Numbered from the stretch's first letter, positions 4,065 to 25,311 are shown. The stretch: 64,000 nt of DNA from Candidatus Caldarchaeum sp. (GCA_038896555.1 JAWACZ010000003.1:4249-68248); one strand, 5' to 3'. The notes: generated from the sequence alone by a model not told the origin. A program made the numbers and translations.

Positions 4065-4072
4065 CTTTTCTC

Positions 4073-5149: not shown

Positions 5150-5174
5150 GGCAACAAGCGGTCTTTTTCCGAGG

Positions 5175-5233
5175 ATATATAGATAAACCGCCGAAAATAT
5201 TTTGACACGTAAACTCTATATACATCTATATTC
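5175..5233. promoter_or_regulatory. Divergent pstS / abrB-phoU control region with three TCTATAT boxes
   Basis: ATCTATATAT on the minus strand (5175-5184) is centred about 31 nt upstream of the pstS ATG (5149). Tandem CTCTATATAC/ATCTATATTC (5214-5233) is centred about 27 nt upstream of the ATG at 5246. Confidence 0.45.
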
Positions 5234-5245
5234 CGATTAAACTTG

Positions 5246-6259: not shown

Positions 6260-6551
6260 CAAGCCGTTCTATTATGCTGGCAAGCTTCAGGTCGTAGGTG
6301 CTGATTCCGCCAAGGTCGTGGGTCGTGAGCCAAACCTCGACAACGTTGTAAACGTTGAACCATTCGGGATGATGTTGGAGCTTCTCAGCCTCAAGAGCAA
6401 CTTTCGCCATGAAACCAAAGCATTCCACAAAGTCGTTGAAAACAAACTTCTTGTACAGCTTACCGTCCTTTACAACCCAGCTTGAGCCCAGCTTCCTTAA
6501 CCTCTCTTCCAACTCCGTGTCGTTAAGCAGACGGTATTCCTCAGAAGCCAT
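6243..6551 (-). CDS. Pterin-4-alpha-carbinolamine dehydratase (PCD/DCoH family)
   Basis: 102 aa with the family motif HHPEWFNVYNVVEVWLTTHD. Confidence 0.85.
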   Translation of the reverse strand: MASEEYRLLNDTELEERLRKLGSSWVVKDGKLYKKFVFNDFVECFGFMAKVALEAEKLQHHPEWFNVYNVVEVWLTTHDLGGISTYDLKLASIIERLARQCH

Positions 6552-6597
6552 GGCTCGAGGTCATTCAGGCGTCAATAATATGTTTTCCAGCTACCAA

Positions 6598-10301: not shown

Positions 10302-10432
10302 ACCTGCTCGAAGATAAGTTTTTACGGATGCGGCTCAGTCAAATGCCTCGCTGTCATACCATCCTCATAACTCTGAGACATCACCGCCGCAGCATAGACA
10401 TATCAATAGGCTGTTCTTAACCTTAAACAGGC

Positions 10433-11218
10433 ATGGCAGAAGACGAAAACGTCATCAAAGAAGCCGACAGAGTCTTGATAGTCACGGAGAAAAAGAAGAG
10501 ATACCTAATCCAAATAAGGTCTGGTAAGAAGTTTCACTGCAGCGAAGGTTTTATCGATACCTCTATTTTGGTGGGTAAGGCATATGGATGCTCCATCGTC
10601 AGCAACATAGGCTCGCGATGGAATATTTTCAAGCCCACAATCCTCGACAGAGTTCTGTTTTTCCCAAGGACGACACAAATAGTGTACCCTAAAGACCTTG
10701 GGTACATCGTCGTAGCCTCGGGGATAGGGCCGGGAAGCCGTGTTTTAGAGGCTGGCACTGGGACAGGTGTTCTCACAACTATGCTAGCCTACCTAGTCAG
10801 GCCGACGGGGAAAGTCTACAGCTATGACGTCAAAGCAGATTATCTTGAAGCGGTTTCGGTCCGGCTGAGGCAGCTGGGTTTGTCCGAATACGTAGAGCTG
10901 AAACAAGGCGATGTAAGCCATGGTGTAGAAGAAAAAACCTTGGACTCAGCGATAATAGACGTGCCTGAGCCGTGGGCCGCTGTCGAAGCCTGCCGTGAGG
11001 CCCTTAGGCCCAGCGGGGTTTGGGTGTCCTTGAGTCCAACGGTGGAGCAGGTTGTCCAAACCTTCGAGGCTTTAGAGAAAGCTGGGTTCGGAGACCTCTC
11101 ATGCGTAGAGATTTTGATGAGAAACATACGGATCAAAAGAGGTATGACCAGGCCCGAATTCTTAATGAGGGGCCATACAGCCTACATAGTTACAGCGAGA
11201 AAAACCGTGGAGGACTAA
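10433..11218 (+). CDS. trmI: tRNA (adenine-N1)-methyltransferase TrmI/Gcd14 family
   Basis: N-terminal beta domain (RVLIVTEKKKRYLIQ), then SAM motif I VLEAGTGTGVLT and the family-typical IDVPEPW. Confidence 0.85.
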   Translation: MAEDENVIKEADRVLIVTEKKKRYLIQIRSGKKFHCSEGFIDTSILVGKAYGCSIVSNIGSRWNIFKPTILDRVLFFPRTTQIVYPKDLGYIVVASGIGPGSRVLEAGTGTGVLTTMLAYLVRPTGKVYSYDVKADYLEAVSVRLRQLGLSEYVELKQGDVSHGVEEKTLDSAIIDVPEPWAAVEACREALRPSGVWVSLSPTVEQVVQTFEALEKAGFGDLSCVEILMRNIRIKRGMTRPEFLMRGHTAYIVTARKTVED

Positions 11219-11829
11219 ACTTTCTTCCAGGTCACGTTTTTTCTAACCTCGTTCATCGCCTGAGCAATCTCTCGGGCTGCGTCTTCAGCATGCTGGAAAG
11301 GGTATGTCTGGGGATAGTTTAGAGATATTATCTTCAAGTAACACATGGCTGCGTTAGCCGCCGCGACAACAAACTGTCTGCCAACCTGCTGGTCCAGCAT
11401 TATCTCCTCAAGGGTTGAAGCCTCCCGTTTACGGCCGGCGCCAGCCAAGTCGTCCTTAATCCTTCTTTCAGCAATATCTTCGGGCCTGCTTTCTATGTAA
11501 ACAATTAGGTCTGGCTTGATTATTTTTACAACTTCTGAAGGAAGCCCAGGATAGTAGCCCGAGCTCGTTTTAATCACGGAGTGTGTATCCACCACGACGT
11601 TCGTCATGACAGCTATCTTCTCAGCAGCCATTAGCTGAAGCTTCTGATAATCCGGCAAGCTCAGCATTCTCCGCATGTCGTCTCTATGAACTATCCCATA
11701 GCTTCTGGCAGCTTCCTCAAACATGATGTCGCCAAAGTTGACGACCCTAACATCGGGCATTATCTCGACAAGCTTCTTCAGCGTAGTGGTTTTCCCCGAA
11801 CCAGGTAAAGCCGTAACCACTGTTTTCAC
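11215..11829 (-). CDS. adkA: Adenylate kinase, archaeal type
   Basis: P-loop ALPGSGKTT, and FGDIMFEEA...HRDDMRRM...VDTHSVIKTSSGYYPGLP, collinear with archaeal AdkA. Confidence 0.9.
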   Translation of the reverse strand: MKTVVTALPGSGKTTTLKKLVEIMPDVRVVNFGDIMFEEAARSYGIVHRDDMRRMLSLPDYQKLQLMAAEKIAVMTNVVVDTHSVIKTSSGYYPGLPSEVVKIIKPDLIVYIESRPEDIAERRIKDDLAGAGRKREASTLEEIMLDQQVGRQFVVAAANAAMCYLKIISLNYPQTYPFQHAEDAAREIAQAMNEVRKNVTWKKV

Positions 11830-12034
11830 AAGTTTAACGTTTCACGGACTGTTAAATACCTACCCTAAGCGGTTGAAGCCTTCATCGACGCCATGGATGA
11901 CAGGCTGGTAGTTTTCTCCTTTTGGAAATTAGACACCAGCCGCTGTTGAACTCCAGGCTATCCGGTGAAGTGCAGTTAAAAACAGTCAAAGGCCGTAAGC
12001 TGTATCCTTTGTACTGCAGATTCGATGATAGGAT

Positions 12035-12895
12035 TTAGCCACCAGGTAGCTCCAGCTGTTTTTCAAGTTTCTGCTTCATCGAAAGATATTCGCTCTGCTT
12101 CAACTCTCCAATCTTGTACCTGAGCTCGAGCTTGGTGAGCTCCTTCTTTATCTTATGGTGTTGTTCCATGAGCACGTCGAGCACTTGGAGGGCTGAGTTT
12201 ACGTCTTCCTCAATTTGGCTCATTGTTGTTTCTTTAAGGCCTAGCTCCTTGCCGCTTGTCTTGATTTTGTTGAGCCTTTCCTCTAGCTGTGTTTTGAATG
12301 CTGGCAGGTCAGCAAGTCTTATGTTGAACGGGTTTCTGAGATACATCAGCTTGGGCCGAAGCCGCCCCATCTCCCTCTCTATCTCCAGCTTCTGTGTTAT
12401 ATATTGTCTATCCGGTATTTCCCCCACCTCATGCTTCACTCTCAGCTTATCCAAGTTTGCGCTCAAGGAGCTTATCCTCTCATCGACTTTTTTGATCTCG
12501 GCCTCACGTCTCTCGTTGAGAGTGCGCAGCCTTGACCTATATTCGGTGAAGAGCTCTTCGAAAACTTCCGGGTCGGCCTCACGTTCGAGGAAAAGGTCGA
12601 TCAAACGGAAATACCATGAATATACAGAGGAAGTCTGGTCGACCAACCTTTTTTCCTCAACTACAGCCTCTTCAACCGCGGCTGGGGCCGGTGCTGCAGC
12701 GGCCTCCACCGTCTCTGGAGCTATCTCGGCCGGGGGCTGTTCCGCTGGTGTTGGAGGAGTCTCCTCAATAACAGGCTTTGGCATCTCAGCCGGCTTTTCC
12801 AACGTGTATCCGCAGTATATGCAGAATTTTCCCTTGATGGTCAGCCTGTGACAGTTCGGGCATTCGACTCTTGTTGACGCCAATTCGGAAAACAA
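12035..12895 (-). CDS. Zinc-ribbon protein with Pro/Ala linker and long coiled-coil (possible CdvA-like helical domain)
   Basis: CPNCHx11CIYCG ribbon, a PAEQPPAEIAPE..APAPAAVEE linker, then about 200 aa of helix with the repeated motifs VGEIPDRQYITQKLEIE and IGELKQSEYLSMKQKLEKQLE. Coding call is solid; function is tentative. Confidence 0.6.
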   Translation of the reverse strand: MFSELASTRVECPNCHRLTIKGKFCIYCGYTLEKPAEMPKPVIEETPPTPAEQPPAEIAPETVEAAAAPAPAAVEEAVVEEKRLVDQTSSVYSWYFRLIDLFLEREADPEVFEELFTEYRSRLRTLNERREAEIKKVDERISSLSANLDKLRVKHEVGEIPDRQYITQKLEIEREMGRLRPKLMYLRNPFNIRLADLPAFKTQLEERLNKIKTSGKELGLKETTMSQIEEDVNSALQVLDVLMEQHHKIKKELTKLELRYKIGELKQSEYLSMKQKLEKQLELPGG

Positions 12896-13066
12896 CGGCT
12901 CCTCAGCCTAATAAAACTTACTTAAGGGGTTTTGACACGTGTTTGGGGTTTTATACGGCGGTGCATCGCTGAGTATTCGGATTCAGGGTCTTTCGGGATT
13001 TCGTGGACGTTATAAGAGCTAGATACGCTTGAAAAGGTTTTAAGCCGCCAGAATTAAGCTTGCACG

Positions 13067-13306
13067 ATGTCGGAAAAGGAGACAAACCTTCCATCGGCCC
13101 CGATACACCGGCTGATGAAGAAGGCCGGCGCTACCAGGGTCAGCGAGGACGCGGCCGAGGAGCTAAGACGGGTTTTGGAAAACGTTGGAACAATCATAGC
13201 CAAAGAAGCCTTCGAGCTCGCCCAGTACGCGGGGAGGAGAACGGTCAAGAGAGAGGACGTTGAAAGGGCTGCAAAAACAGTTTTGAGAAACGTTCTCATT
13301 AGTTAG
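13067..13306 (+). CDS. Archaeal histone (HMf family)
   Basis: 79 aa histone fold: LPSAPIHRLMKKAGATRVSEDAAEEL...AQYAGRRTVKREDVERA. Confidence 0.9.
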   Translation: MSEKETNLPSAPIHRLMKKAGATRVSEDAAEELRRVLENVGTIIAKEAFELAQYAGRRTVKREDVERAAKTVLRNVLIS

Positions 13307-13316
13307 ATGCTTTAGA

Positions 13317-13326
13317 TTTATATATA
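13317..13326 (+). promoter_or_regulatory. TATA box candidate for the thermosome gene
   Basis: TTTATATATA lies about 40 nt upstream of the ATG at 13362. A GAGGT Shine-Dalgarno-like element is at 13348-13352. Confidence 0.4.
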
Positions 13327-13361
13327 CCCCATACAAGGCTAAGTCCAGAGGTTGATGTAGC

Positions 13362-14990
13362 ATGTCCTTGGCACCAGGTCAGCCAGTAATAGTTTTGAAG
13401 GAGGGCACCACGAGAACGCAGGGAAAATCTGCACAGAGAAACAACATTGCAGCCGCGAAAATAATTGCTGAAATAGTAAGGACAACCCTTGGCCCGAAAG
13501 GAATGGATAAGCTGCTCGTAGACAACATCGGCGATGTCATCGTCACAAACGACGGTGCTACGATACTGGAGAAAATAGACGTCGAACACCCGGCCGCTAA
13601 GATGATAATCGAGGTTGCGAAGTCTCAGGACCATGTTGTAGGCGACGGGACCACGACAGCTGTCGTGCTGGCGGGCGAGCTTTTGAGGAAGGCTGAGGAG
13701 CTCATCGAGCAGAAGATCCATGCAAGCACCATTATCTCAGGATACAAGAAGGGACTCGACATGGCGCTGGGTGAGCTGAACCAAAACGCAATTAAAATCG
13801 AACTCAACGACCGCCAGACACTCCGTAAAGTTATCACCACGGCGTTGGGAAGCAAGTCTCTTGGCTTCGCTCTCGACAGGCTTGTGGACATTGCCATAGA
13901 CGCCGTTCTGAGCGTTGTTAAGGAGGTTGACGGCAAGCTCAAGGCCGACAAAGACGACATCCAGATCGTTAAGAAGATCGGAAAAAGCCTTGGAGAGACG
14001 GAGCTGGTCAGAGGTGTTATTGTCGATAAAGAGGTTGTGCACGCAGCCATGCCCAAACGTGTAGAGAACGCTAAGATAGCTCTTATAGACAGCCCGTTCG
14101 AGATCGAGAAAACAGAATTCAGCGCAGAGATAAGGATTAGAGACCCGTTGAAGATTAAGGAGTTCCTCGACGAGGAAACAAACATTCTCAAGGGCATGGT
14201 GGACAAGGTGAAGGCTGTCGGCGCGAACGTTGTGTTTTGCCAGAAAGGAATCGATGACGCAGCACAGTTCTTCCTCGCGAAGGAAGGCATACTGGCTGTG
14301 AGAAGGGTCAAGAAGAGCGACATGGAGAAGCTCGCCAAAGCAACGGGGGGAAGGATAGTTACGAACTTTGAAGACCTTTCGCCGAAGGACCTTGGCAAGG
14401 CAGGGCTTGTCGAGGAGAGGAAGATCGGAGAAGACAGGATGGTGTTTGTTGAAAAGTGCGAAAACCCGAAATCAGTGGCCATCCTCCTCCGAGCTGGGCT
14501 GGAGAGACAGCTGGACGAGGCGGAGAGAGCTTTGAACGATGCGATTATGAACATGATCGACTTGGTTGACGACGCAAGGGTGGTTCCGGGCGGAGGGGCC
14601 ATAGAAGAGGAGCTCGCCAGGCAGCTGAGGGCCAATGCTGGAAAGCTCTCCGGCAAGGAGCAGCTTGCTTTCACCGCCTTCGCCGAGGCATTGGAAGTTA
14701 TTCCCAAGACGCTGGCTGAAAACGCTGGGCTTGAGCCTGTGGAGATAATGGCTCAACTACGTCATGCCCACGACAACGGCGGGAGAACCGTGGGAGTCAA
14801 CATATTCGGCGGCGGAGTTGCAGACATGCTGAAGAACGGCGTGCTAGAGCCGGCGAAGGTAAAGATTCACGCCCTCAGGTCGAGCTTCGAAGCAGCCTCC
14901 ATGATACTGAGAATAGACGACGTTGTAGCGGCTTCCAAGAAGAAGGAAGAGAAGAAGAAAGAGAAGGAAGAGGAGACGCCTGAATTTTAA
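13362..14990 (+). CDS. ths: Thermosome (group II chaperonin) subunit
   Basis: [32 protein letters not shown] and [11 protein letters not shown] motifs, with a K/E-rich C-terminal tail. Confidence 0.97.
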
Positions 14991-15010
14991 ACCTTTTTCG
15001 GTTTTTTCAA
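14991..15010 (+). terminator. Oligo-T terminator candidate after the thermosome gene
   Basis: T5 (14994-14998) and T6 (15002-15007) runs lie directly after the TAA at 14988-14990. Archaeal termination typically uses oligo-T tracts. Confidence 0.4.
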
Positions 15011-15057
15011 AAACTTTTCCAAACACTTTTTAGGAGACTGAAGACGTTCCCTCAGGC

Positions 15058-15432
15058 ATGAGAATGGCTGCTGTTTTAGGAACGCTGGTGGGTGTCGGTG
15101 TTTTTGTCCAGATTTTGCTGGGCGAAACCGGGTTTGCTGCAGGCTCTTTAAGAGATGTGCACGCCATCATCGGGCTGCTGGGCTTGGCTGTCGTGATCGC
15201 CTATGTTGTCACAGCACGGGGAAGCTTGGCCAGGCTTGCTGCCGCGCAGTTTGTTGCGTTGATAACTTTTGCTCAGGTTGTTTTGGGACTGTCGCTCTAC
15301 GGCCTGCTTTCCATTGGAATGGGGCATGAAGCGCTAAAGCTCAGTCACAGGGCTACAGCATACATCCTCTTCCTCTCAGGCCTCGCCGTCAGCGTTTTTT
15401 CCGTGCTTTCCCGAAGACGGACGAAAACCTGA
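15058..15432 (+). CDS. Small integral membrane protein (4 TM), unknown function
   Basis: 124 aa with four hydrophobic stretches and no recognisable motif. Confidence 0.55.
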   Translation: MRMAAVLGTLVGVGVFVQILLGETGFAAGSLRDVHAIIGLLGLAVVIAYVVTARGSLARLAAAQFVALITFAQVVLGLSLYGLLSIGMGHEALKLSHRATAYILFLSGLAVSVFSVLSRRRTKT

Positions 15433-15469
15433 AAATCTCGTTTAAATTTAAGCAAGGCATTGTTATTCC

Positions 15470-16675
15470 ATGGTTTTTCCGTTCTCCTCCGTTTTCGATT
15501 TTTCGGTTGAGGTTAAAGAAGAGTACGAACTCTTCAGGAAGTCTGTCCGCGAGTTTGCTGAAAGGGAGCTGGAGAAACATGTGGCGGAGATTGAGAGGAC
15601 AAACAAAATTCCCGAGTTCCTTCTGAAAAAAGCGGCTGAACAGGGTTATTTCGGGCTCGGCATCCCTGAAGAGTATGGGGGGCAGGGGACGGACATTATG
15701 TATAACACGCTTTACGTCGAGGAGATATCCCGTGTCTGCCCAGCCTTTACGGTGGCCACCTTGGTTCACGGGCTTTTCACATACCCCGTGTTGGTTTTCG
15801 GGACGGTGGAGCAGCGGCGAAAGTATCTACCGCCGTTGGCTAGGGGTGAGAAACACGCATGCCACGCCACCACGGAGCCTGGGGCAGGCACCGACGTCGC
15901 CGGCATCGAAACAACAGCCAAGAGAAAGGATGGCGGCTGGGTCATAAACGGAAGGAAATACTTCATCTCCGGCGCCGACAAAGCCGACTATTTCATAGTG
16001 TTGGCGAGAACATCTCCTCCCCCAAGCCGTAAGGAGAGAAACAAGGGGCTTACTTTTTTCATCGTCGGAAGGGAAACGGAGGGGCTTAGGGTTGGCGAGA
16101 AGATAGAGGTTTTAGGCATCCGAGGGAGCCATCCGTCGGAGGTAATTCTGGACAACGTTTACGTTCCCGAGGAGAACATGGTTGGCGAGGAGGGGCAGGG
16201 TTTTAAGATCGCCATGGAGACATACGACCACGGAAGAATTGGGGTTGCGGCCCAGGCTGTCGGAGTGGCTCAGGCATGCTTCGAGAAAAGCCTACAGTAC
16301 GCGCTGCAGAGAAAAGCCTTCGAAAGGCCTTTGATATATTTTCAGGCTGTCCAGTTCCATATCAGCGAGATGCTTACAGCTCTGGAAGCCGCTAGGCTGA
16401 TGCTCTACTGGGCTTCTACGATGGCTTTGAAGAACAAGCAGGGAGCTGTCATGGCTGCTTCGATGGCTAAGCTCTTCGCGACAGAGGTGGCTGAAATGGC
16501 TGCTCTGAAGGCTGTTTCAGTGCATGGAGGAATGGGCGTAGCTTTAGACGGAATGGTTGAGAGATTTTTACGGGATTCACAGATATTCAAGATATACGAA
16601 GGTGTCAACGACATCCAGAAGCTTGTCATCCTCCGTCAGATGCTAAAAACCACTTTCGGGATGGACGTAGACTGA
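15470..16675 (+). CDS. Acyl-CoA dehydrogenase
   Basis: TEPGAGTDVAG, GxKxFISGA (GRKYFISGADKA) and IYEGVNDIQ motifs. 401 aa. Confidence 0.93.
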   Translation: MVFPFSSVFDFSVEVKEEYELFRKSVREFAERELEKHVAEIERTNKIPEFLLKKAAEQGYFGLGIPEEYGGQGTDIMYNTLYVEEISRVCPAFTVATLVHGLFTYPVLVFGTVEQRRKYLPPLARGEKHACHATTEPGAGTDVAGIETTAKRKDGGWVINGRKYFISGADKADYFIVLARTSPPPSRKERNKGLTFFIVGRETEGLRVGEKIEVLGIRGSHPSEVILDNVYVPEENMVGEEGQGFKIAMETYDHGRIGVAAQAVGVAQACFEKSLQYALQRKAFERPLIYFQAVQFHISEMLTALEAARLMLYWASTMALKNKQGAVMAASMAKLFATEVAEMAALKAVSVHGGMGVALDGMVERFLRDSQIFKIYEGVNDIQKLVILRQMLKTTFGMDVD

Positions 16676-16737: not shown

Positions 16738-17298
16738 ATGGCCTCTTTCGTCAGGCTGGCAGCTGGAGCGTTAGTAAGCCTCGCCATAATACTGCTGCTA
16801 TCTACCGTTGAGCTTTCCTTCCCCCAACCCCTTCAGGCTGTGGTTATCTCATTGGTCTTGACGGCGGTGGCTTCAGGTTTTGTAGCAGGCTCGGCAGCCA
16901 CGGCCGCCGCCGGAACTTTCATCGGCGGCTTTGCAGCACTTGTTCTCGCAATACTCTGGAATGTAACGCTCTGGTCGCCTTCTCCTGTTCCATCCGACAT
17001 GCCCATCATCAGAACACTCCTACTGGGTGGAGCAGCCGTCCTAGCGGCGGGTGTCGGCTTTGTCAAGGGAAGCATACTCCACAAAACCCCCGTCCCCACT
17101 GAACCGCGGAAAGAACAGTCTCAAGCCGTGCAACCGCAGGATTCAAGCCAGGTCACGTCCCCGCTTATCCCCGAATCCAAGCCTACCCCCGTTGTGTTGG
17201 AGGTCGAGAATAGGATATGCAAGTTTTGCAGTAGCGTTATACCGGCTGAGTCTGTGTACTGCCCCATGTGTGGAGCTAAACTGGTTGAGGAAGAGTGA
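16738..17298 (+). CDS. Membrane protein with C-terminal zinc ribbon
   Basis: Four hydrophobic segments, a Pro/Ser/Gln linker, then CKFCx12CPMCG. Its stop overlaps the lhr GTG (GTGA at 17295-17298). Confidence 0.65.
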   Translation: MASFVRLAAGALVSLAIILLLSTVELSFPQPLQAVVISLVLTAVASGFVAGSAATAAAGTFIGGFAALVLAILWNVTLWSPSPVPSDMPIIRTLLLGGAAVLAAGVGFVKGSILHKTPVPTEPRKEQSQAVQPQDSSQVTSPLIPESKPTPVVLEVENRICKFCSSVIPAESVYCPMCGAKLVEEE

Positions 17299-20156
17299 AA
17301 TGGATGTTTTCAGAAGAAACGCTTTCCGTCCTAAACCTGCTGGTAAAGCCTTTAAAAGACGCAGTAATGGAGAAGTTTGGAGAGCTGACTCAGCCGCAGC
17401 TGAAGAGCATACCTAGGATACTGGTGGGAGAAAACCTTCTGCTGATGGCTCCCACCGGCACGGGGAAGACGGAAGCGGCTTTGATACCTTTGCTGAACAA
17501 AATTATTTTACAGCCTAGCTTTGAAGGGGTTAAGATTCTTTACATCACCCCGTTGAGGGCGTTAAACCGCGACCTGCTCGACAGGATAGAATGGTGGGCT
17601 GGAAGGCTTGACATGACCGTAGCTGTTAGACACGGTGATACTGCTCAGAGGGAGCGTAGAACGCAGTCACTTATCCCGCCAACAATCTTGATAACCACGC
17701 CTGAGACGCTTCAGATACTTTTGACTGCCAGATTGTTCCGCCAGCATCTTCGCAGGGTTGAGGCTGTTGTGGTGGACGAGGTTCATGAGCTTGCTGGAGA
17801 TAAGCGCGGCAGCCAGCTATCCGTGGCTTTGGAGAGGCTGACAGAGATTACAGGAAGGGATTTCCAGAGGATTGGCTTGTCGGCTACGGTTGGAAGCCCT
17901 GAGAAAGTGGCCGCTTTTCTCGCAGGTGTTGGAAGAAGCTGTAGCGTGGTAAGAGTTCCCGTGGTAAGAAACCTGCATCTCTCCGTCAAATATCCGGAGC
18001 CAGGCCCGGAAGATTTCGACCTCGCCGAAAAACTGTCAATATACCCAGACGTGGCGGCGAGGATGAACTTGATAAGGTCTCTTGTAGAATCCCATGAATC
18101 AACGCTTGTCTTCACGAACACAAGGCCTCTTGCCGAGATCCTCACCAACAGGTTTAGGGCTTGGGATGAAGCGGCTCCGATAGGGATTCATCACGGAAGC
18201 CTTTCGAAAGCAACGCGCGTTGGAGCTGAGCAGGCGCTGAAGACAGGAGGGCTGGCGGGAGTTGTATGCACTTCGTCACTCGAAATGGGCATAGACGTGG
18301 GGCGGATAGAGCTTTGCATACAGTACAACTCTCCAAGAGAGGTAACCCGGCTCGTGCAGAGAGTGGGCCGCAGCGGCCACTCAATCCACGGCACGGCAAA
18401 GGGTGTCATAATCGTCACCGATTCCGACGATGCTTTGGAAAGCGTCGTCATAGCCAGACGTGCTTTGAAAGACCTCATAGAAGACGTCGAAATCTTCGAA
18501 AACAGTTATGACGTTCTCGCACACCAGCTGGCTGGGCTTGTAATCGAGAAGAAGGAGATAGAGTTGGATAAGGCGTTAAACATCTTTAGACGGTCTTATT
18601 GTTTTAGAAAGCTCACCATGAAGGAACTGATGAAGGCCGCACAGCATCTGGAGAAGCTTGGAGCCGTGATGATAACCAGCGACAACATTCTGGCACAGGG
18701 GCCTAAAACATCCATGCTGTACGACTATTACTTCAACAACCTCTCAATGATACCTGAGGAGAGACAGTACCTAGTGGTTCTTGAATCGACGGGCGAGCCC
18801 ATAGGCATACTCGACGAAGAGTTTGTGGCTGAGCATGGAGAGCCGGGGACTCGGTTTATCTTGATGGGAAAGGCTTGGGAGATAATTCAAACAGCCGGCG
18901 AAAGAATTTACGTTTCCGCCTTGGACAGTCTCGAAGGAGCTGTCCCCTCATGGGTAGGCGACGAGATACCAGTCCCCTTCGAAATAGCTGAGGAAGTGGG
19001 AAAGATACGTAGGCTGTATGCCGAAGCCGTTGCCAGAGGATGTTCAGACGATGTTTTACAGTCCTTGGCGGAACAATACATGACAGACAGGTCTTTGCTG
19101 GAGAAATCTCTACGGGAGGTCAAGATGCATCTCGATAAAGGTCTTCCAGCGCCGTCGGATAAGACGGTCGTTTTAGAGGAGACGCCTGAGTACATTGTTT
19201 TACACGTATGCGGCGGGCTTAAGCCGAACAGGACCATAGCCCGTGTGCTGGCTTACGTTCTCTCGTCAAGGATAAGTGCTGTAGTGACTGTGCAGCAAGA
19301 CCCTTATCGGATAGTTTTCAAAGGTCGTGAGCTCAGCCTCGAGCTTGTGGCAGAAGAGGTCAAGAACCTAGCTCGGGAAAATCAGTGGCTGAAGCTTGTG
19401 GAGAAGGCTGTCGAGTCGTCGAGTTTGTTTAGGAGAAGGCTTGTCCACGTGGCCCGTAAGATGGGGGTTTTGAGCAAGGAGGCTAGCATACTGGACGTAA
19501 ACGCCACAAAACTAGCTGAAATGCTGCGTGACACCGTTGTCTACGAAGAGGCTTTAAAACACTGTCTAGCCGCTGATTTCGACCATGAAACATCTTTCAA
19601 CCTGATTAGCAAGGTCTCAACGGGCGAGGTCTCTCTTATTCCGGTAAGGGTTGAGGATCTTTCTCCACTGGCAAGGTTGACGGTCAGCAGGTACGCCAGC
19701 GACATAGACGTGATTGTTTCCGACCGGCTGCAGAGGCTTGTGGTCAACGCTGTAAGGGGAAGGCTTAACAACGAGCCTGTAACCCTAGTATGCATATCAT
19801 GCTGGCAGTGGTACGCAAGGGCTGCTGTGAAAGAGCTGGATACAAAGCCTGTCTGCGGTGCTTGCGGCTCGTCTTCGCTCGGGGTTTTGAAGTCCGAGCC
19901 TGAGGAGGTCCTGAACCTGCTCGCCCACCGTGGGAAACCGTCGAACAATAAAGAGCGGCAGCTTAGAAAACAGGCTCTTAAAACCGCTCTCCTAGTCGCG
20001 AAGTATGGGAAGACGGCTGTATTCACTTTAGCGAGCCATTATCTCAACGTGGAGGACGCGGCCAAAATTCTTGAGAATGAGTCAAGCTTGGGCGTGAGGC
20101 TTGTGGAGCTTATCGTGGAGGCTGAGAAAAAGAAGCTCCAACAGCTGTTTAAGTAG
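17295..20156 (+). CDS. lhr: Lhr-type DEAD/DEAH-box (SF2) helicase with DEAD-associated C-terminal domain
   Basis: Motif I MAPTGTGKTEAA, motif II VVDEVHEL, GLSATVG, motif VI VQRVGRSGH. Long C-terminal extension with a CISC...CGAC ribbon. Alternative start at ATG 17304. Confidence 0.9.
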   Translation: MKWMFSEETLSVLNLLVKPLKDAVMEKFGELTQPQLKSIPRILVGENLLLMAPTGTGKTEAALIPLLNKIILQPSFEGVKILYITPLRALNRDLLDRIEWWAGRLDMTVAVRHGDTAQRERRTQSLIPPTILITTPETLQILLTARLFRQHLRRVEAVVVDEVHELAGDKRGSQLSVALERLTEITGRDFQRIGLSATVGSPEKVAAFLAGVGRSCSVVRVPVVRNLHLSVKYPEPGPEDFDLAEKLSIYPDVAARMNLIRSLVESHESTLVFTNTRPLAEILTNRFRAWDEAAPIGIHHGSLSKATRVGAEQALKTGGLAGVVCTSSLEMGIDVGRIELCIQYNSPREVTRLVQRVGRSGHSIHGTAKGVIIVTDSDDALESVVIARRALKDLIEDVEIFENSYDVLAHQLAGLVIEKKEIELDKALNIFRRSYCFRKLTMKELMKAAQHLEKLGAVMITSDNILAQGPKTSMLYDYYFNNLSMIPEERQYLVVLESTGEPIGILDEEFVAEHGEPGTRFILMGKAWEIIQTAGERIYVSALDSLEGAVPSWVGDEIPVPFEIAEEVGKIRRLYAEAVARGCSDDVLQSLAEQYMTDRSLLEKSLREVKMHLDKGLPAPSDKTVVLEETPEYIVLHVCGGLKPNRTIARVLAYVLSSRISAVVTVQQDPYRIVFKGRELSLELVAEEVKNLARENQWLKLVEKAVESSSLFRRRLVHVARKMGVLSKEASILDVNATKLAEMLRDTVVYEEALKHCLAADFDHETSFNLISKVSTGEVSLIPVRVEDLSPLARLTVSRYASDIDVIVSDRLQRLVVNAVRGRLNNEPVTLVCISCWQWYARAAVKELDTKPVCGACGSSSLGVLKSEPEEVLNLLAHRGKPSNNKERQLRKQALKTALLVAKYGKTAVFTLASHYLNVEDAAKILENESSLGVRLVELIVEAEKKKLQQLFK

Positions 20157-20745
20157 TCTGCTCCTGCCTGCCGTCAGCAACGCTGGAAAGGTTTGCCACA
20201 GCCTTTATCAACTCTTTTTGGTCAACTTCTGCAACAGCCCTCCATCCAACGGAGAGAACTCCGTCGCCCGCGTCGACCAAGTATCCTCTTCGGCTAAACC
20301 TTTCCAAAGCCGCTTCAACACGCCATTTAGGCAGCTTAGACTCAAGCATTTCAAGCAACTCTTGCCTGGGTGCTTTCCCTCCTCTTGAGTAGAGCAAAGC
20401 CAGCGCCGCAGAAAGAACGGCCAGGTCATCTATCCTCCAGCCGGCAGCCACAATGTCGGAGAGGCTCAAAGGATCTGTCAACGTTATGAAATACCTGGCT
20501 CTGTCGTAGTCTTCTTCGCCGGGTTGTCTGTCCCCCGGTGTTTCAAAAAGGATTTTCACACACAGGCCCAGGGGTTCAAGCCTGTGGTTCAGGCTCTCTA
20601 TAACTTTGAGATAATTTTTCCCCAGCCTTCTTCTAAGCTCGTAGCCCCTCACGCCGGGGAGCCTGTGGCTGGTGAAAAGCAGCATAGCCATGGCCGTTGA
20701 GAGCTTTTTTCTCGCTGCAGACTGTTCAGGAGTTGGTTCAGACAA
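20149..20745 (-). CDS. Tandem winged-helix protein, ScpB/kite-like
   Basis: Two wH-like halves (AMAMLLFTSHRLPGVRGYELRRRLG...LGLCVKIL and LSAALALLYSRGGKAPRQELLEML...RRGYLVDAGDGVLSV). TTG start overlaps the upstream gene by 8 nt. Family assignment is by pattern only. Confidence 0.55.
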   Translation of the reverse strand: MSEPTPEQSAARKKLSTAMAMLLFTSHRLPGVRGYELRRRLGKNYLKVIESLNHRLEPLGLCVKILFETPGDRQPGEEDYDRARYFITLTDPLSLSDIVAAGWRIDDLAVLSAALALLYSRGGKAPRQELLEMLESKLPKWRVEAALERFSRRGYLVDAGDGVLSVGWRAVAEVDQKELIKAVANLSSVADGRQEQTT

Positions 20746-21502
20746 GCACAGTACCTTCCTTCAAAACAACAACCATGGAGGCGACGTTCCTCCTCTCCGC
20801 CTTAGACTCATAGGGTTTGAGCGTCACCTTTCCGGTGATAGGGTTTTTGACAACTTCAGCCAAGCCTTCGCTGACTATGAAAGCTGTCAGATAAGCCCTT
20901 TCAACGGTCTTTTCCACACCTTCCCTGGATATGAAGGAAGCATAGCCGACTTCGCCGTTCTCGTCTCTTGAAGCAAGCATTTCACTATGCAGCTTCTTCA
21001 GCTCAAGCTCTATCTCCTCTCTCTGGCTGAATGTGTTCAAAGCCTGGCGGAAATCAACTTCAGAGCCTATCTCGCTGGTTGCGGGAGACTTTAGATTGCG
21101 GGTCGGCAGGCTTAGAAAATATTCCAACCCCATCGCCACCATGCCTCGAGTAAGCTGCTCGGCCGACACGATGGGTCTCCAGCTTGATGCAAGCGCCTGG
21201 GCCAGCGATTTTTTATCAGCCGACAAAATCTTCAACGTTATCAGCTGCGTGTCAACAAGCAGGGAAGAAGCTCTGTCTTTAAGCCATTTATGTTGCAGGG
21301 CTATGACCAAGGCAACTCTGTAGAGCGTTTCCGCGTCCAACGTCAAAATCTCTGTATCGCCGGCCCTCTCCACGATCGACCTCAGCTTGGCCAAAATAGC
21401 CTTCACATCAACGCTGTAGGGGTCGGCTCCGGTCTTTGCTATCGTCTCGCAGAGTGAAATAAGCCTTTCCAGCTCTTCCTTAGCCAGCTTGACGCTCGTC
21501 AC
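20738..21502 (-). CDS. Kleisin-like protein (ScpA-like layout)
   Basis: 254 aa with a helical N-terminal region and a C-terminal wH-like segment (VERAYLTAFIVSEGLAEVVKNPITGKVTLKP) resembling the kleisin cap-binding WHD. GTG start overlaps the SMC-like gene by 23 nt. Confidence 0.5.
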   Translation of the reverse strand: MTSVKLAKEELERLISLCETIAKTGADPYSVDVKAILAKLRSIVERAGDTEILTLDAETLYRVALVIALQHKWLKDRASSLLVDTQLITLKILSADKKSLAQALASSWRPIVSAEQLTRGMVAMGLEYFLSLPTRNLKSPATSEIGSEVDFRQALNTFSQREEIELELKKLHSEMLASRDENGEVGYASFISREGVEKTVERAYLTAFIVSEGLAEVVKNPITGKVTLKPYESKAERRNVASMVVVLKEGTVLV

Positions 21503-23234
21503 TCGAAAACACCTCCGCCGCAGCCGGTATCGAGACGACGGACCTTCCCTTCACGTTCTGTACTACGATGGTATTTACGTCCTCTTTGTACGGAACTCTG
21601 CCTGGTGTGATGATGATGTATTGTGTGTCACCGTCCTGTTTGGCTGTTGACGTAAGTATGTTGATTATCCTCTCGCGGTTGAGCGGGTCGAGGTGAACGT
21701 CGAATTCGTCAACTGCCCTGAAGGGTGATTTTATGTATTTTTGAAGTGCTAGGAGAAAAGCCATCGTCGCAACTATCCTCTCACCGCCGCTCTGTGTGTG
21801 AGCGTTCAGCAAAGTTGGCTCAACCCCTCTGAACCCCACGTAGACCTCCACCGATGCTTTGTCTACGTCGTTCAAGTTCCTCAGCTCTATTTTCCCCGAA
21901 CCCCCTACAACGGACAGAATTCTTTGATACTCTGGTTCGACGGCCGCTGTGAGGCTGCGTAGGAACTCACGCCACTTCTGCTTCCTGTACTCGGCTTCTT
22001 CGAGGGCTTTACGTGCGTTTTCACTCAGCTGGGAAGCTTTAAGCTCCGCCTCCCTGTACTTGGCTTCAGCCAGCATGAACATCTCCTCCGCCTGAGGGGT
22101 TGGATTGCCCATGGATGCAAGCTGCAGCCCAACAGCCTTCAGTTCTTCAGAGACTTCCAACGGCTTTCTTCCAGCATCTACTCGCGGCCCCTTCTCGGAA
22201 GCTTCGGAAACTCTTCTGGCCAGCTCTTTCTCAGCCGCAGTCAGCTCATATCTTAGATCTTTCAACTCGGATTCTCTGATCTCTTTTCTCTCGAGACTTC
22301 TGCCGAGCCCTTCAGCAGTTTTTACCAAATCGTTCAATTTTTCCGCCAGTTCTTCCTTGGAGGCTGTTTCGCTAAATTGCCGCAGCAGCCTTTGGGATAG
22401 AATGTTAACCTCATCTGAAAGCCTTCGAGTCTCCTTCTCAAGCTTTTCAACCTCTTCGTTCAGCATGTTTATCTTATCTTGGATTCTGTCCCTAGATTTC
22501 TCAGCCTCTCTGACCAAAGACCAGAGATACTCTGTCTCGAGCTGTTTTTTACGTTCCTCAAGCTGTTTAATGACGTTAAGCTTCTGGTATTCCTCCCGCC
22601 AGTAATCTACTGCTGCACGTGCGTCTTCCAAAGTCTTCCTTATCACAGCTTCTTCGGCCAATAGAGCCGACAGCTTGGTCTCTGCCTGCTTTATCTTCTC
22701 CCTCAGACCGGCAGCGCCGACGGCCTCCTCGATCATAACAAGCTTCTCCCTACTGTCTCTGCTGACAAACTGTTCAATCATGTTTTGATGCATTATTATA
22801 AGCATGTTGTCTGGGTTTATCCCAATCTTTGAGAGAAGGTTCTCAACCTCGGCTTTGGTTTTAAACTTGTTGTTTACATAGTGCCAGTATTCGCCGTTCT
22901 TTTTCAGAAACCTAGCGATTGTGACGGAGTCGGAGGAGATTGTGGGTATTGGGCGTTTTCCGTCAACAGGTCTGTTGTCGAAGACCACTGCAACTCTGGC
23001 TGCGTCCATGCCTCGGCGTATTAGGTCGCTCAACCTCTGACCCCTTTCCGTGTAAGTCTGCCCCAAAGCCACCGAAATCGCCAGCAGAATCGATGACTTA
23101 CCTGCTCCGTTTGGGCCAACTATCACGTTCAACCCAGCTTGAAGAGGGATTCGACTGTATTCATGGGACATAAAGTTCTCTAAGATGACCTCTCCGATGT
23201 AAGGCCTTGCCCTGCCTTCTTCACCCGCTGACAA
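21480..23234 (-). CDS. SMC-like ABC ATPase with short coiled-coil arm (584 aa)
   Basis: N-terminal head IGEVILENFMSHE...VIVGPNGAGKSS (Walker A), Q-loop IIMHQNMIEQF, about 270 aa of E/K/L/R-rich helix without a globular hinge or CxxC hook, then signature QSGGER and Walker B/D-loop FRAVDEFDVHLD. TTG start. Confidence 0.8.
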   Translation of the reverse strand: MSAGEEGRARPYIGEVILENFMSHEYSRIPLQAGLNVIVGPNGAGKSSILLAISVALGQTYTERGQRLSDLIRRGMDAARVAVVFDNRPVDGKRPIPTISSDSVTIARFLKKNGEYWHYVNNKFKTKAEVENLLSKIGINPDNMLIIMHQNMIEQFVSRDSREKLVMIEEAVGAAGLREKIKQAETKLSALLAEEAVIRKTLEDARAAVDYWREEYQKLNVIKQLEERKKQLETEYLWSLVREAEKSRDRIQDKINMLNEEVEKLEKETRRLSDEVNILSQRLLRQFSETASKEELAEKLNDLVKTAEGLGRSLERKEIRESELKDLRYELTAAEKELARRVSEASEKGPRVDAGRKPLEVSEELKAVGLQLASMGNPTPQAEEMFMLAEAKYREAELKASQLSENARKALEEAEYRKQKWREFLRSLTAAVEPEYQRILSVVGGSGKIELRNLNDVDKASVEVYVGFRGVEPTLLNAHTQSGGERIVATMAFLLALQKYIKSPFRAVDEFDVHLDPLNRERIINILTSTAKQDGDTQYIIITPGRVPYKEDVNTIVVQNVKGRSVVSIPAAAEVFSSDERQAG

Positions 23235-23371
23235 CCTTGCCCTGCAGGCCTCTATTGTCCGATTATATAAATTCCCACGCTTGAAAAGAGAAATTTGGGC
23301 TTACATCACACATACGTGAGGATATTCGATGGTATGTTGTTAATAAATATGCGGAGGCCGTTTTCCGCTAA

Positions 23372-23380
23372 GATATATAG
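23372..23380 (+). promoter_or_regulatory. TATA box candidate for cdvC
   Basis: GATATATAG is centred about 30 nt upstream of the ATG at 23406, a leaderless-type spacing. This argues against the longer ORF start at 23295. Confidence 0.45.
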
Positions 23381-23405
23381 ACTCGCTGGGACTCCACGCA
23401 CAGGC

Positions 23406-24524
23406 ATGTCGCAGGAGCTGGAAAGAATAGCTGCAATAAGGGCAAAAGAAGCCGTCAACTTTGATAGGATGGGACAGAAACACAAGGCGATTAAATCTTA
23501 CCGGGATGCAATAGACATTTTATGGAAGCTTTACCATCTAGCCCCCGACACATCAATAAGGAGGATTTACGCTGACAAGATCAAAGAGTATCAGACTAGG
23601 ATTGAAGAGTTGACGAACGAGACTTCGCCAGCCGAGCCTGTGCAGCTGGATGCAAAGCCTGTTCGGACAAACCTTATCACGATGGAGAAACCTAAAGTAA
23701 GCTGGGAAGACATCGTAAACATAGAGGAGGCGAAGAAAGCCATCAGAGAAAGCATAATCTTTCCCACAAAAAGGCCGGACCTTTTTCCTCTCGGGTGGCC
23801 GAGAGGGATTCTTCTCTTCGGCCCACCTGGATGCGGCAAAACTCTGCTAGCAGCAGCTGTGGCCTCCGAGCTTGAAGCCGGCTTTTACACAGTCGATGCG
23901 GCGAGCATAATGTCCAAATGGTTGGGCGAGTCGGAGAGGAATGTCTCAAAAATATTTAACCAATGCAGGCAGGAGGCAAGGTCGGGGAGACCTGTTATAA
24001 TTTTCATCGATGAAGTGGACTCGCTGACAACAGAAAGATTTATGGAGGTCGGTGGTGAGGCGAGGGTGAGAAACCAGCTAATAAAGGAGATGGACAGCAT
24101 AATTGACAAGGGCCGTAGAGATTTTCTCTACGTGATAGCGGCTACAAACAAGCCGTGGCATCTCGACGAACCCTTCATAAGAAGGTTTCAAAAAAGAATC
24201 TATGTTTCTCTTCCAGACCTCAACGCGCGGGTGAAGCTGTTTGAAATGTATACGAAGGGGTTGAAGCTCGACGCTGGGGTGGAGCTAACACAGCTGGCGA
24301 AGATAACTGACGGATACTCGGCTGCAGACATCCACGACATATGTGTTGAAGCCCAGCTAAAGGTTGTGAGCGAGTTTTTCTCAACCACTGAGGGAGAAAA
24401 GGGTGAGCCGAGACCCGTAACCATGGACGACTTTATGGACATCATCAAAAAACGAAAACACTCTATAATGCTGGAAAACCTGAAAAAACTTCTCGACTGG
24501 AACTCAAAATACGGAACTAGCTAG
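23406..24524 (+). CDS. cdvC: Vps4-like AAA ATPase CdvC (MIT domain + AAA)
   Basis: N-terminal MIT-like three-helix region (AIRAKEAVNFDRMGQKHKAIKSYRDAIDIL...YADKIKEYQTRIEEL). Walker A LLFGPPGCGKTLLA, Walker B IIFIDEVDS, SRH ATNKPWHLDEPFIRRF. Confidence 0.9.
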   Translation: MSQELERIAAIRAKEAVNFDRMGQKHKAIKSYRDAIDILWKLYHLAPDTSIRRIYADKIKEYQTRIEELTNETSPAEPVQLDAKPVRTNLITMEKPKVSWEDIVNIEEAKKAIRESIIFPTKRPDLFPLGWPRGILLFGPPGCGKTLLAAAVASELEAGFYTVDAASIMSKWLGESERNVSKIFNQCRQEARSGRPVIIFIDEVDSLTTERFMEVGGEARVRNQLIKEMDSIIDKGRRDFLYVIAATNKPWHLDEPFIRRFQKRIYVSLPDLNARVKLFEMYTKGLKLDAGVELTQLAKITDGYSAADIHDICVEAQLKVVSEFFSTTEGEKGEPRPVTMDDFMDIIKKRKHSIMLENLKKLLDWNSKYGTS

Positions 24525-25311
24525 CCTCTGCAACCTCCAGCTGTATTAACCCTTTTTGATGCAGGTTTCTCAACACATCAGACACGGTTTGAGAGTCGAG
24601 GCCGAGCTCGGAGGCGCATCGGTCAAGGTCAAGCTCTTCTACATTATGTTCTACCACATAGCTGTAGACTGTTTTCTCTATGTCGGTTAGCTTAGGCACC
24701 TCCGGGAAAGCTTGGCGAACCTTTTCCGCTGCAATCTTCCTCGCGTGCTCGAGTATGAACGAAGCCTCTTCTGTGACAGCGTCATGCTTCTCTAAGCTGG
24801 GTTCGGCGTAAACGCCTGCACTTGACATAAAGTCGTCGATCATCGCCATCAGGTTTCTCAGGTTTTCTGAAGCCTCAGGCGCCACATCCGATATCTCGGT
24901 CACGATGTTCTGCAACATCACAGACAAGGGCCGTATCAAGGCTAGAGCCTCCCCAAGTTCGAGGATGCTTTCAAGCCTTATCTTGACTTGGAGAAGAACA
25001 AGCTGGCTGTGGAGTACTATTCCAGCCAGCTTCTTTATCTCAGCTATCTCCGATGCGTAGATTTTTGCTTTTTCATCATCCTTGACCTGAATGGCTTCCA
25101 CGCATCTTTCAAAATATTCCCTGCTCCTTGCCAGCATTTCCCTGTATTTGTTGTTTAGCCTCTCTATATGCCCGTTGAGTGAAGATATGGATTTCTCGAT
25201 TTTAGCGGTAAACTCTTCAGATACTTCAAAATGCGGTACATCCTCCTGCATGTATTCCCGCCAATCATTCTTGCGTCGCAAAAACCCTATCAAGCCAGTT
25301 CGCCGCTGCAC
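24517..25311 (-). CDS. cdvB: ESCRT-III (Snf7-like) protein CdvB with C-terminal winged helix
   Basis: Helical hairpin core (AKIYASEIAEIKKLAGIV...LESILELGEAL), a Pro-containing FPEVPKL segment, and a C-terminal wH (LDSQTVSDVLRNLHQKGLIQLE). Collinear with crenarchaeal CdvB as I recall it. Its 3' end overlaps the cdvC 3' end by 8 nt. Confidence 0.85.
   Translation of the reverse strand: MQRRTGLIGFLRRKNDWREYMQEDVPHFEVSEEFTAKIEKSISSLNGHIERLNNKYREMLARSREYFERCVEAIQVKDDEKAKIYASEIAEIKKLAGIVLHSQLVLLQVKIRLESILELGEALALIRPLSVMLQNIVTEISDVAPEASENLRNLMAMIDDFMSSAGVYAEPSLEKHDAVTEEASFILEHARKIAAEKVRQAFPEVPKLTDIEKTVYSYVVEHNVEELDLDRCASELGLDSQTVSDVLRNLHQKGLIQLEVAEAS

Follow-up and report, generated by a model that had tools for sequence, protein, structure and literature searches.

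Three overlapping genes on the minus strand of a 64,000-nucleotide (nt) stretch from Candidatus Caldarchaeum sp. (GCA_038896555.1, JAWACZ010000003.1:4249-68248; hereafter "the window," with positions counted from its first letter) are predicted to encode a compact SMC-type ATPase, a kleisin and a tandem winged-helix protein of the kite type. We think it likely that this trio is the Caldarchaeum form of the archaeal SMC5/6-related complex, built on a short, hinge-less SMC and working as an ATP-gated DNA clamp or tether beside Smc-ScpAB. The operon type and its evolutionary identity are already known, and Caldarchaeum is tabulated by van Hooff et al. (i.e., van Hooff, Raas, Tromer and Eme, bioRxiv 2024/25, 10.1101/2024.01.07.573240). 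What is added here is the architecture of the SMC and its distribution rather than the discovery of a system.

Gene 1 (21480-23234, minus strand; 584 amino acids (aa), TTG start) is the candidate short-arm, hinge-less SMC ATPase of SMC5/6 type, gene 2 (20738-21502, minus; 254 aa, GTG start) the candidate Nse4-like kleisin, and gene 3 (20149-20745, minus; 198 aa, TTG start) the candidate Nse1/Nse3(MAGE)-like kite. An earlier reading of the window, made from the sequence without database searches (the sequence-only reading), had proposed three minus-strand genes with overlaps of 23 and 8 nt. The open reading frames (ORFs) confirm this (gene 1/gene 2 and gene 2/gene 3, respectively), and the NCBI gene calls in the Caldarchaeum metagenome-assembled genome (MAG) GCA_038890255.1 yield the same three products. 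Proteins identical to the trio are present in NCBI MAGs named Candidatus Caldarchaeum (Aigarchaeota/Caldarchaeales).

Gene 1 combines the split ABC head and antiparallel coiled coil of canonical SMC proteins with the loss of two of their other hallmarks, the hinge at the apex and arms of ~47-50 nm; a review definition of SMC proteins includes the hinge (PMC10586767). In the AlphaFold2 (AF2) monomer model (mean predicted local distance difference test (pLDDT) 84.5; predicted template-modelling score (pTM) 0.63), the N-terminal head half (residues 1-172; 22719-23234, minus) holds NFMSH (residues 20-24), the Walker A motif GPNGAGKSS (40-48), R64 and the Q-loop MHQNM (148-152), of which NFMSH, GPNGAGKSS, R64 and Q150 are invariant across two family alignments. 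The C-terminal half (residues 445-567; 21534-21902, minus) holds the signature QSGGER (481-486), AVDEFDVHLD (507-516) with the catalytic E510 kept, and IIITPG, which replaces the H-loop. Between the halves runs an antiparallel coiled-coil arm (residues 175-441 by AF2 secondary structure; 21912-22712, minus), made of one outgoing helix (175-288) and three return helices (293-348, 358-375 and 382-441); the return arm is broken at 349-357 and 376-381 by conserved, joint-like Gly/Pro interruptions, with G349, R356 and G376 conserved. At the apex, where an SMC hinge or a Rad50 hook would be expected, the model has a 4-residue turn (residues 289-292, in ...RQFSETASKE...; 22359-22370, minus) and no globular insert.

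These data bear out the sequence-only reading on the design of gene 1. The head motifs that it quoted are all present, its helical spacer of roughly 270 aa measures 267 aa, and its statement that neither hinge nor CxxC zinc hook is present agrees with the bare turn and with a cysteine count of zero, which makes a CxxC hook impossible. Its estimate by eye of an arm well under half the canonical length also stands: the N-terminal arm helix has 114 aa, or ~17 nm, as against ~47-49 nm for canonical SMC arms (PMC5344682, PMC5526789).

The absence of a hinge was also seen in profile searches and in family conservation. The Pfam model SMC_hinge has no match in gene 1 at E<=1, nor is it among the 25 Pfam families listed for 44 diverse family members, each of those families being matched by at least four members, such that at most three could match SMC_hinge weakly; two hinge-bearing relatives used as positive controls (P0326 and P0296, described below) do give an SMC_hinge signal. 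In family alignments the turn region is the least conserved stretch of the protein and takes nearly all indels, while W212, W238 and W421 in the head-proximal coil and the break residues G349, R356 and G376 are invariant or nearly so. The whole model is best fitted by PDB 5xei (Foldseek E=5e-23; template-modelling scores 0.57/0.63), an engineered Pyrococcus fragment of head, coiled coil and joint, and for this reason native gene 1 is modelled as an SMC that ends shortly past the joint.

That this layout merely reflects a truncated or mis-assembled ordinary Smc-ScpA-ScpB operon has next to no probability. The gene order SMC-kleisin-kite does resemble some Smc-ScpAB operons, and some databases label the homologues "Chromosome partition protein Smc," but a single unbroken ORF spans both head halves, proteins of this length are found again in more than 120 clusters and many independent assemblies, no family member matches Pfam ScpA or ScpB at E<=0.1, and C. 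subterraneum has a separate ScpA/ScpB-type pair (PMC3082918; 10.1101/2024.01.07.573240). The uninterrupted ORF, the recurrent length and the lack of ScpA/ScpB profile matches refute the truncation that the sequence-only reading had itself named as the case that would undo its proposal.

The heads of gene 1 identify it as an SMC, and more narrowly as one of SMC5/6 type. Pfam SMC_N matches at E=6e-37 and the NCBIfam SMC model TIGR02169 at 3e-59, and in sequence comparison with solved structures SMC5 (3.7e-32) and SMC6 (3.4e-29) lead, by a small margin over Pyrococcus Smc. When 1.84 billion representatives were searched exhaustively with HMMER, 111 proteins came up at E<=1e-30, and beyond the archaeal family the next-best matches include eukaryotic SMC6 from an insect and fungi; the three named proteins among those matches are SMC6 or fungal P-loop proteins. 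Family and SMC6 have in common NFM[SC][HY] before Walker A, DEFDV at the Walker B/D-loop, and (I/L)TP at the position of the canonical SMC H-loop segment; NFMSH of gene 1 reads NFMCH in SMC6, in line with the likeness to SMC6/Rad18-type heads that the sequence-only reading had noted. Two comparison proteins, whose canonical SMC status is assumed from a length of ~1170 aa and a Walker A near residue 30, read GFK/NFK, DE(I/V)DA and ISL at the corresponding motifs. Walker A, Q-loop, signature and the Walker B Glu are invariant across the family alignments, and from its motifs gene 1 reads as an intact, putatively active ABC ATPase of the SMC5/6 type.

It is extremely unlikely that gene 1 is a protein of the Rad50, ASRP, Sph or coalescin kind with unrelated small partners, a relation to ASRP, Sph and coalescin being one that the sequence-only reading had entertained. 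Weak NCBIfam matches to Rad50 (3.5e-24), arcadin-4 (2e-12) and ASRP (1e-11) exist, and the length of ~590 aa is close to the 593 of the ASRP model. All of these models, however, as well as those of RecN and RecF, score far below their curated cutoffs—85 versus at least 700 bits for Rad50 and 44 versus 300 bits for ASRP (NF045487)—and the RecN and RecF assignments were rejected on that ground. There is no zinc hook and no Mre11 or nuclease neighbour, the partners are a kleisin and a kite, and the top 50 Foldseek matches of the gene 1 model, headed by 5xei and then Smc5/6 head regions, are all true SMCs. Cutoffs, fold matches and absent cysteines together effectively refute a Rad50/ASRP/Sph/coalescin identity.

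The two partners point to SMC5/6 as well. Residues 191-236 of gene 2 (20795-20932, minus), a C-terminal winged-helix region that aligns with the winged-helix domain (WHD) of Nse4, match Pfam Nse4_C only faintly as a single protein (E=0.19), but 8 of 35 family members match that model, the best at 1.7e-6. Searched against the PDB, the profile of these 35 members matches Nse4 from yeast at 5.6e-4 and EID3 from human at 0.019, with all others at E>1, and none of the members matches SMC_ScpA at E<=0.1. Gene 2 is thus predicted from family profiles to be an Nse4-like kleisin, and by analogy its winged helix is presumably the domain that binds the SMC cap. For gene 3, fold comparison was used because the family sequence profile found nothing in the PDB. 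The AF2 monomer model (pLDDT 83.6) has two winged helices, at residues ~6-89 (20479-20730, minus) and ~105-166 (20248-20433, minus), and its best Foldseek matches are human NSE1/MAGE-G1 (5hvq, 8.8e-7), Xenopus Nse1/Nse3 (7dg2, ~1e-6) and yeast Nse1/3; JetB, MukE and ScpB rank lower, ScpB being 35th. Among 37 family members, 18 match Pfam SMC_Nse1, 17 match MAGE and none matches SMC_ScpB at E<=0.1. Sequence family and fold model agree in making gene 3 a probable Nse1/Nse3(MAGE)-like kite.

Profile searches, the check suggested in the sequence-only reading, therefore place genes 2 and 3 in kleisin and winged-helix kite families rather than in unrelated ones. That reading was right about the C-terminal winged helix of gene 2, which its family members show clearly, and about the two winged helices of gene 3, and its likening of gene 3 to ScpB needs correction, genes 2 and 3 being Nse4-like and Nse1/3-like and not of ScpA/ScpB type. 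The core of that reading, an SMC-type ATPase with unusually short, hinge-less arms encoded together with a kleisin and a kite, stands on each point that was tested. Of the affinities that it offered, that to SMC5/6-like lineages is borne out by both lines of evidence, the SMC5 and SMC6 structures that lead the matches of gene 1 and the Nse4 and Nse1/Nse3/MAGE matches of the partners, while the relation to ASRP, Sph and coalescin is not supported, given the ASRP score.

The short form is the rule in the archaeal SMC5/6-related family. More than 120 homologue clusters at >=51% identity all measure 561-636 aa, three fragments excepted, and the short form occurs in ~50 of ~55 full-length family representatives at 50% clustering. 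In these ~50 representatives the distance from Walker A to signature is 429-563 aa (median 502; 442 aa in gene 1) with no mid-arm CxxC, compared with ~900 aa in hinge- or hook-bearing relatives and in SMC6, and with ~860-940 aa in the long matches, three of which carry names (SMC6 or fungal). Arm lengths in the family are ~16-26 nm, and named carriers of the short form belong to the Nitrososphaeria, Bathyarchaeia, Korarchaeota (Methanodesulfokora), Thermofilales and Caldarchaeales.

The exceptions differ at the apex. Three relatives of ~1020-1050 aa (P0268, P0271 and P0290) have CDKC or CERC exactly in mid-protein, a motif that by sequence resembles the zinc hook of Rad50, here on a head of SMC5/6 type; they are 39-40% (P0268 and P0271) and 37% (P0290) identical to gene 1, and the named proteins that cluster with P0268 and P0271 are from Bathyarchaeia. 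A fourth, the 982-aa P0296, has a central region homologous to the hinge of the Asgard protein P0326 (Freyarchaeum, 835 aa; BLASTP 1e-11) and a sub-threshold Pfam SMC_hinge match (E=0.006), and comparison of that region with PDB sequences gave no hinge match. SMC_hinge also matches P0326 itself and one SMC6 hit. The remaining long outgroups, eukaryotic SMC5/6 and canonical SMC, have a hinge. Most members, then, have a bare apex; a few, like the Asgard and eukaryotic relatives, have a hinge there, and some Bathyarchaeia a CxxC motif.

A neighbour-joining (NJ) tree of the heads (333 columns, 100 bootstraps), in which internal nodes are poorly supported and only coarse conclusions are drawn, groups the family with eukaryotic SMC5/6 and the Asgard homologue at 100% bootstrap. 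Within it, the CxxC forms P0268 and P0271 (P0290 was not included) are nested inside the short forms with 64-71% support, and the hinge-bearing P0296 falls near the base of the TACK (Thaumarchaeota, Aigarchaeota, Crenarchaeota, Korarchaeota) clade, at a position that the tree does not fix. As the outgroups (Asgard, eukaryotic SMC5/6 and canonical SMC) are long, the simplest reading is an early loss of hinge and distal arm in the TACK lineage, from a tree too weak for counting events. Two further short forms, P0312 (628 aa) and P0317 (633 aa), group with the hinge-bearing Asgard P0326 (73% bootstrap) and not with the TACK clade, a placement that hints at a second, independent shortening.

Several features present the trio as one transcription unit. 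Because the genes overlap, carry internal Shine-Dalgarno-like motifs (GGAGGTG before gene 2, GGAAGGT before gene 3), follow a TATA-like box and stay together in nine loci, we read them as an operon; the usual archaeal layout fits one promoter with coupled translation. The TATA-like box TTTATATAA (23263-23271, minus), read from the sequence ~29-37 nt upstream of the TTG of gene 1, is by analogy with that layout the likely promoter, which would give a leaderless or short-leader transcript. The nine loci are the window, L001 (Thermofilales), L002 (Thaumarchaeota UBA160) and L081-L086; L001 and L002 are among the matches listed in a genome scan of GTDB with the SMC alignment, most others listed being bacterial Smc. 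The eight loci beyond the window come from several archaeal classes. The SMC is short in all nine, and each operon carries a single SMC gene and a single kite gene, paralogues elsewhere in the genomes not having been searched for.

On the side of the kite the operon meets an Lhr-type DNA helicase (17295-20156, plus strand; 953 aa; Pfam DEAD, Helicase_C, WH_Lhr and DEAD_assoc), which lies outside the operon, runs toward the kite gene and shares 8 nt with the 3' end of that gene. A convergent Lhr of ~950 aa stands beside the kite in four of eight distinct loci from two classes: the window, L085 (8614-11481, again with an 8-nt overlap of the kite 3' end), L084 (9047-11908, with a NUDIX gene between) and L001 of the Thermofilales (3951-6788). 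It is absent from the other four loci, L081-L083 and L086 among them. Such adjacency may indicate that Lhr and the trio are linked in DNA repair, or it may be synteny that has been kept. Divergent from gene 1 is a CdvC/Vps4 gene with MIT and AAA domains (23295-24524, plus; NCBIfam CdvC, 491 bits), whose 409-aa ORF (TTG start) is probably over-extended, NCBI calling 372 aa in L088; beyond it, flanking the operon, lies a CdvB-type ESCRT-III gene with a C-terminal winged helix (24517-25311, minus). A functional link to CdvC and CdvB was rejected, since their adjacency occurs only in contigs of the window species and is missing in L084-L086 and others. No canonical SMC gene was found in the 64-kb window.

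The same neighbourhoods bear on the idea of a defence system akin to Lamassu or Wadjet, in which a short-arm ATPase would detect foreign DNA and then set off an effector. Gene 1 matches the PADLOC models LmuB (5e-26) and mad3 (6e-33), LmuB is similar in size and arm length (~650 aa, ~20 nm), and eukaryotic Smc5/6 restricts extrachromosomal DNA (PMC10586767). Yet these PADLOC matches are weaker than that to the SMC model TIGR02169 and are due to the common ABC head; the kleisin and kite match nothing in PADLOC, no effector or nuclease gene of LmuA or JetD type adjoins the trio in any locus examined, and gene 1 keeps the Walker B Glu that LmuB typically exchanges for Gln (PMC10586767). The locus, moreover, sits among housekeeping genes, with homologues that track Caldarchaeales relatives. 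On the PADLOC results and the neighbourhoods we reject defence, which we rate very unlikely. A housekeeping role is supported by the single conserved locus, by the lack of a defence-library match for kleisin or kite, by the Lhr repair helicase that adjoins four of the eight distinct loci and by the second set, of ScpAB type, in C. subterraneum.

Other loci and other parts of the window hold genes of separate note. In L086, from the Aigarchaeota MAG GCA_033582315.1, genes for ParB_N, RHH, phage portal and terminase large-subunit proteins follow directly downstream of the trio (9152-16080), at the site where other genomes carry Lhr; this block suggests an integrated virus or provirus. In L081, a more distant relative (9821-14482), the genes after the trio (SMC of 659 aa), on its strand, encode an NrdD-type anaerobic ribonucleotide reductase and a second ribonucleotide reductase large subunit with a TSCPD domain, a further DNA-metabolism neighbourhood. 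Within the window, an 838-aa ORF (54770-57286, minus) fuses HAD hydrolase, PIN, T2SSE/AAA-type ATPase and KH domains, an unusual combination, and the sole recognisable feature of an 873-aa ORF (7680-10301, minus) is a zinc-metalloprotease motif of the matrixin/reprolysin type at residues ~162-196.

How the complex would work we infer, by analogy, from its SMC-kleisin-kite architecture and from Smc5/6 clamp structures (e.g., 7tve). It would consist of an SMC homodimer (presumed), one Nse4-like kleisin and a kite dimer (presumed), produced from one translationally coupled operon, and in Caldarchaeum as in most TACK archaea its SMC is reduced to head, neck, joint and a short distal coil and lacks the hinge together with roughly two thirds of the arm. 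Two heads would sandwich two ATP; the kleisin would bind one SMC at the neck through its N-terminus and the other at the cap through its C-terminal winged helix, with the kite dimer on the kleisin middle. DNA would then be clamped atop the engaged heads between the short arms, with kleisin and kite keeping it in place as yeast Smc5/6 does in its DNA-clamp state, the arm tips being free or merely zipped where no hinge joins them. Such a machine would probably serve as a clamp or tether at repair or replication intermediates, alongside canonical Smc-ScpAB, and not as a ring with a large lumen or a long-range extruder of loops; the recurrent Lhr gene and the part that eukaryotic SMC5/6 plays in repair point weakly to that function.

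A clamp or tether is favoured because, with the hinge gone, the SMC compartment is not closed. The alternative of a closed mini-ring, in which ~17-nm arms dimerise at or near their tips by coiled-coil packing so that a tripartite ring entraps DNA topologically and, like other SMC complexes, may extrude loops, strikes us as unlikely, though its chance is not negligible. RecN and Rad50 (for Rad50, PMC10586767) are coiled-coil ABC ATPases that dimerise without a hinge domain, a precedent that counts for a mini-ring. The other hallmarks of ring-forming SMCs—kleisin, kite and intact ATPase motifs—are present, and tip dimerisation is evidently used in the family, as its long relatives have an apex hinge or CxxC. 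Against it, the short forms have at their apex a turn of four residues that is conserved in neither sequence nor length and takes most indels, gene 1 is devoid of cysteine, and the spread of family arms over ~16-26 nm differs from the tight tuning of ring-forming Smc arms described in PMC5344682.

Several points weigh against the clamp of SMC5/6 type that we favour. The AF2 monomer model would be compatible with contacts that dimerise the arms, whether along their length or at their tip, and complex formation, stoichiometry and the kleisin contacts with neck and cap are projected from homology only. Taken alone, the window kleisin and kite fall below Pfam thresholds (E=0.19 and 0.25), their assignment coming through family profiles and fold, and the kite family profile had no match among PDB sequences. 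Support for a sister relation to SMC5/6 is weak in the NJ tree (27%) and moderate in the published one (59/70/0.97), in which monophyly with SMC1-4 was not rejected (PMC8665677). A second set of ScpAB type, beside which the complex would work, is known from the literature for C. subterraneum and not from the window MAG. Finally, the Lhr linkage is missing from half of the loci, and Lhr is convergent and not co-transcribed.

Beyond Caldarchaeum, one may generalise to a natural, hinge-less "headpiece-only" machine of SMC5/6 type in most TACK archaea, made of heads, neck, joint, kleisin and kite and with an arm tip that is not conserved; across the family the apex would be an interchangeable module (none, hinge or CxxC), and the conserved, essential activity would be ATP-gated clamping. 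We offer this tentatively, as a possibility that falls somewhat short of an even chance. Hinge and long arms are treated as defining and essential parts of SMC proteins, and their roles in loading, entrapment and loop extrusion are still debated. The archaeal clade closest among prokaryotes to eukaryotic SMC5/6 strongly conserves heads, kleisin and kite but dispenses with the hinge and with most of the arm. It thereby offers a natural experiment on the SMC activities for which a hinge is required, and a constraint on the function of the pre-eukaryotic SMC5/6 ancestor. If the generalisation is true, clamping by heads, kleisin and kite would be the core activity of SMC5/6, with hinge-dependent ring closure or loop extrusion optional, and the small complexes of thermophiles would serve as a minimal model for the purpose of hinges and long arms. 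A compact, thermostable complex of three proteins also suits structural and single-molecule study.

Previous studies have established where this family belongs. The SMCs of TACK archaea were placed as sister to SMC5+6 (Yoshinaga and Inagaki, 2021, PMC8665677), and operons of an SMC5/6-related SMC with Nse4-like and Nse1/3-like genes were described in TACK and Asgard archaea, together with a proposed duplication of the SMC complex in their common ancestor (van Hooff et al., 10.1101/2024.01.07.573240); the remark in the sequence-only reading that partner subunits of such lineages are poorly defined is therefore out of date. Both studies trimmed coiled coils before tree building (PMC8665677; 10.1101/2024.01.07.573240), and arm length or hinge loss of the family is unmentioned in their main texts and supplements. 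We found no literature report of a hinge-less architecture for the archaeal SMC5/6-related family in a search that covered subscription journals thinly and whose sole paper on a hinge-less SMC deals with marine Actinobacteria (PMC12153180), and the short hinge-less architecture and its family-wide distribution appear to be unreported.

For Caldarchaeum subterraneum_A (GCA_000270325.1), Supplementary Table 3 of van Hooff et al. (10.1101/2024.01.07.573240) scores one SMC5/6-related SMC and one Nse1/3-related kite, with no Nse4-related kleisin and with SMC and kite non-adjacent. The unscored Nse4-like kleisin is, most likely, encoded by the orthologue of window gene 2, which is situated between the other two genes. 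The genome paper of C. subterraneum reports an SMC/ScpB/ScpA operon (PMC3082918), and van Hooff et al. list, besides the SMC5/6-related SMC and its Nse1/3-related kite, a ScpB-like kite that adjoins a kleisin of their unclassified archaeal group (10.1101/2024.01.07.573240).

Other hinge-less proteins offer partial likenesses. Lamassu LmuB (~650 aa, ~20-nm arm; PMC10586767) is comparable to gene 1 in size, LmuB and Rad50 likewise have no SMC hinge, and some long relatives of gene 1 have a mid-arm CxxC like that of Rad50 or LmuB. Gene 1, for its part, has no cysteine, keeps the catalytic Glu, pairs with kleisin and kite rather than with Mre11 or LmuA/LmuC, and has heads of SMC type by sequence and fold. 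The SMC variants of marine Actinobacteria, natural hinge-less homologues known from sequence and structure prediction, are a bacterial lineage derived from canonical SMC with no partners described (PMC12153180), unrelated to the archaeal SMC5/6-type family.

Smc-ScpAB follows the same operon logic of SMC, kleisin and tandem winged-helix kite and has a close head fold (5xei and 5xns are among the top matches). Its hinge, its ~47-49-nm arms, its different head motifs and its ScpA/ScpB partners are all absent from the window trio. 5xei itself, from Pyrococcus yayanosii, is an engineered Smc fragment without the hinge, and gene 1 ends roughly at that laboratory truncation point; whereas 5xei is an artificial piece of a hinge-bearing Smc, the short layout of gene 1 is a native, conserved product.

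Eukaryotic SMC5/6 (7tve, 7qcd, 8i13, 7dg2 and 5hvq) has the head motifs NFMxH, DEFDV and (I/L)TP, the Nse4 WHD, the Nse1/Nse3/MAGE kite fold and the head/neck fold in common with the trio, and by analogy a DNA-clamp action common to both complexes is plausible. It has SMC5-SMC6 and Nse1-Nse3 heterodimers, while the single SMC and kite genes of the window operon lead one to expect homodimers, and it has a hinge and long arms where gene 1 is hinge-less with an arm of ~17 nm. The window kite (198 aa, one Cys) does not have the Nse1 RING, and no Nse2, Nse5 or Nse6 gene was found in the operon or its neighbourhood; the Nse1 RING, Nse2 and Nse5/6 are eukaryotic additions according to van Hooff et al. 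(10.1101/2024.01.07.573240). The nearest counterpart is the archaeal SMC5/6-related complex, the family to which the trio itself belongs; its single operon encodes an SMC sister to eukaryotic SMC5+6 along with a kleisin related to Nse4 and a kite related to Nse1/3, and it occurs beside a complex of ScpAB type. The features by which membership in that group is judged—an SMC5/6-type head, an Nse4 kleisin and an Nse1/3 kite encoded in one co-localised operon—are all found in the window trio.

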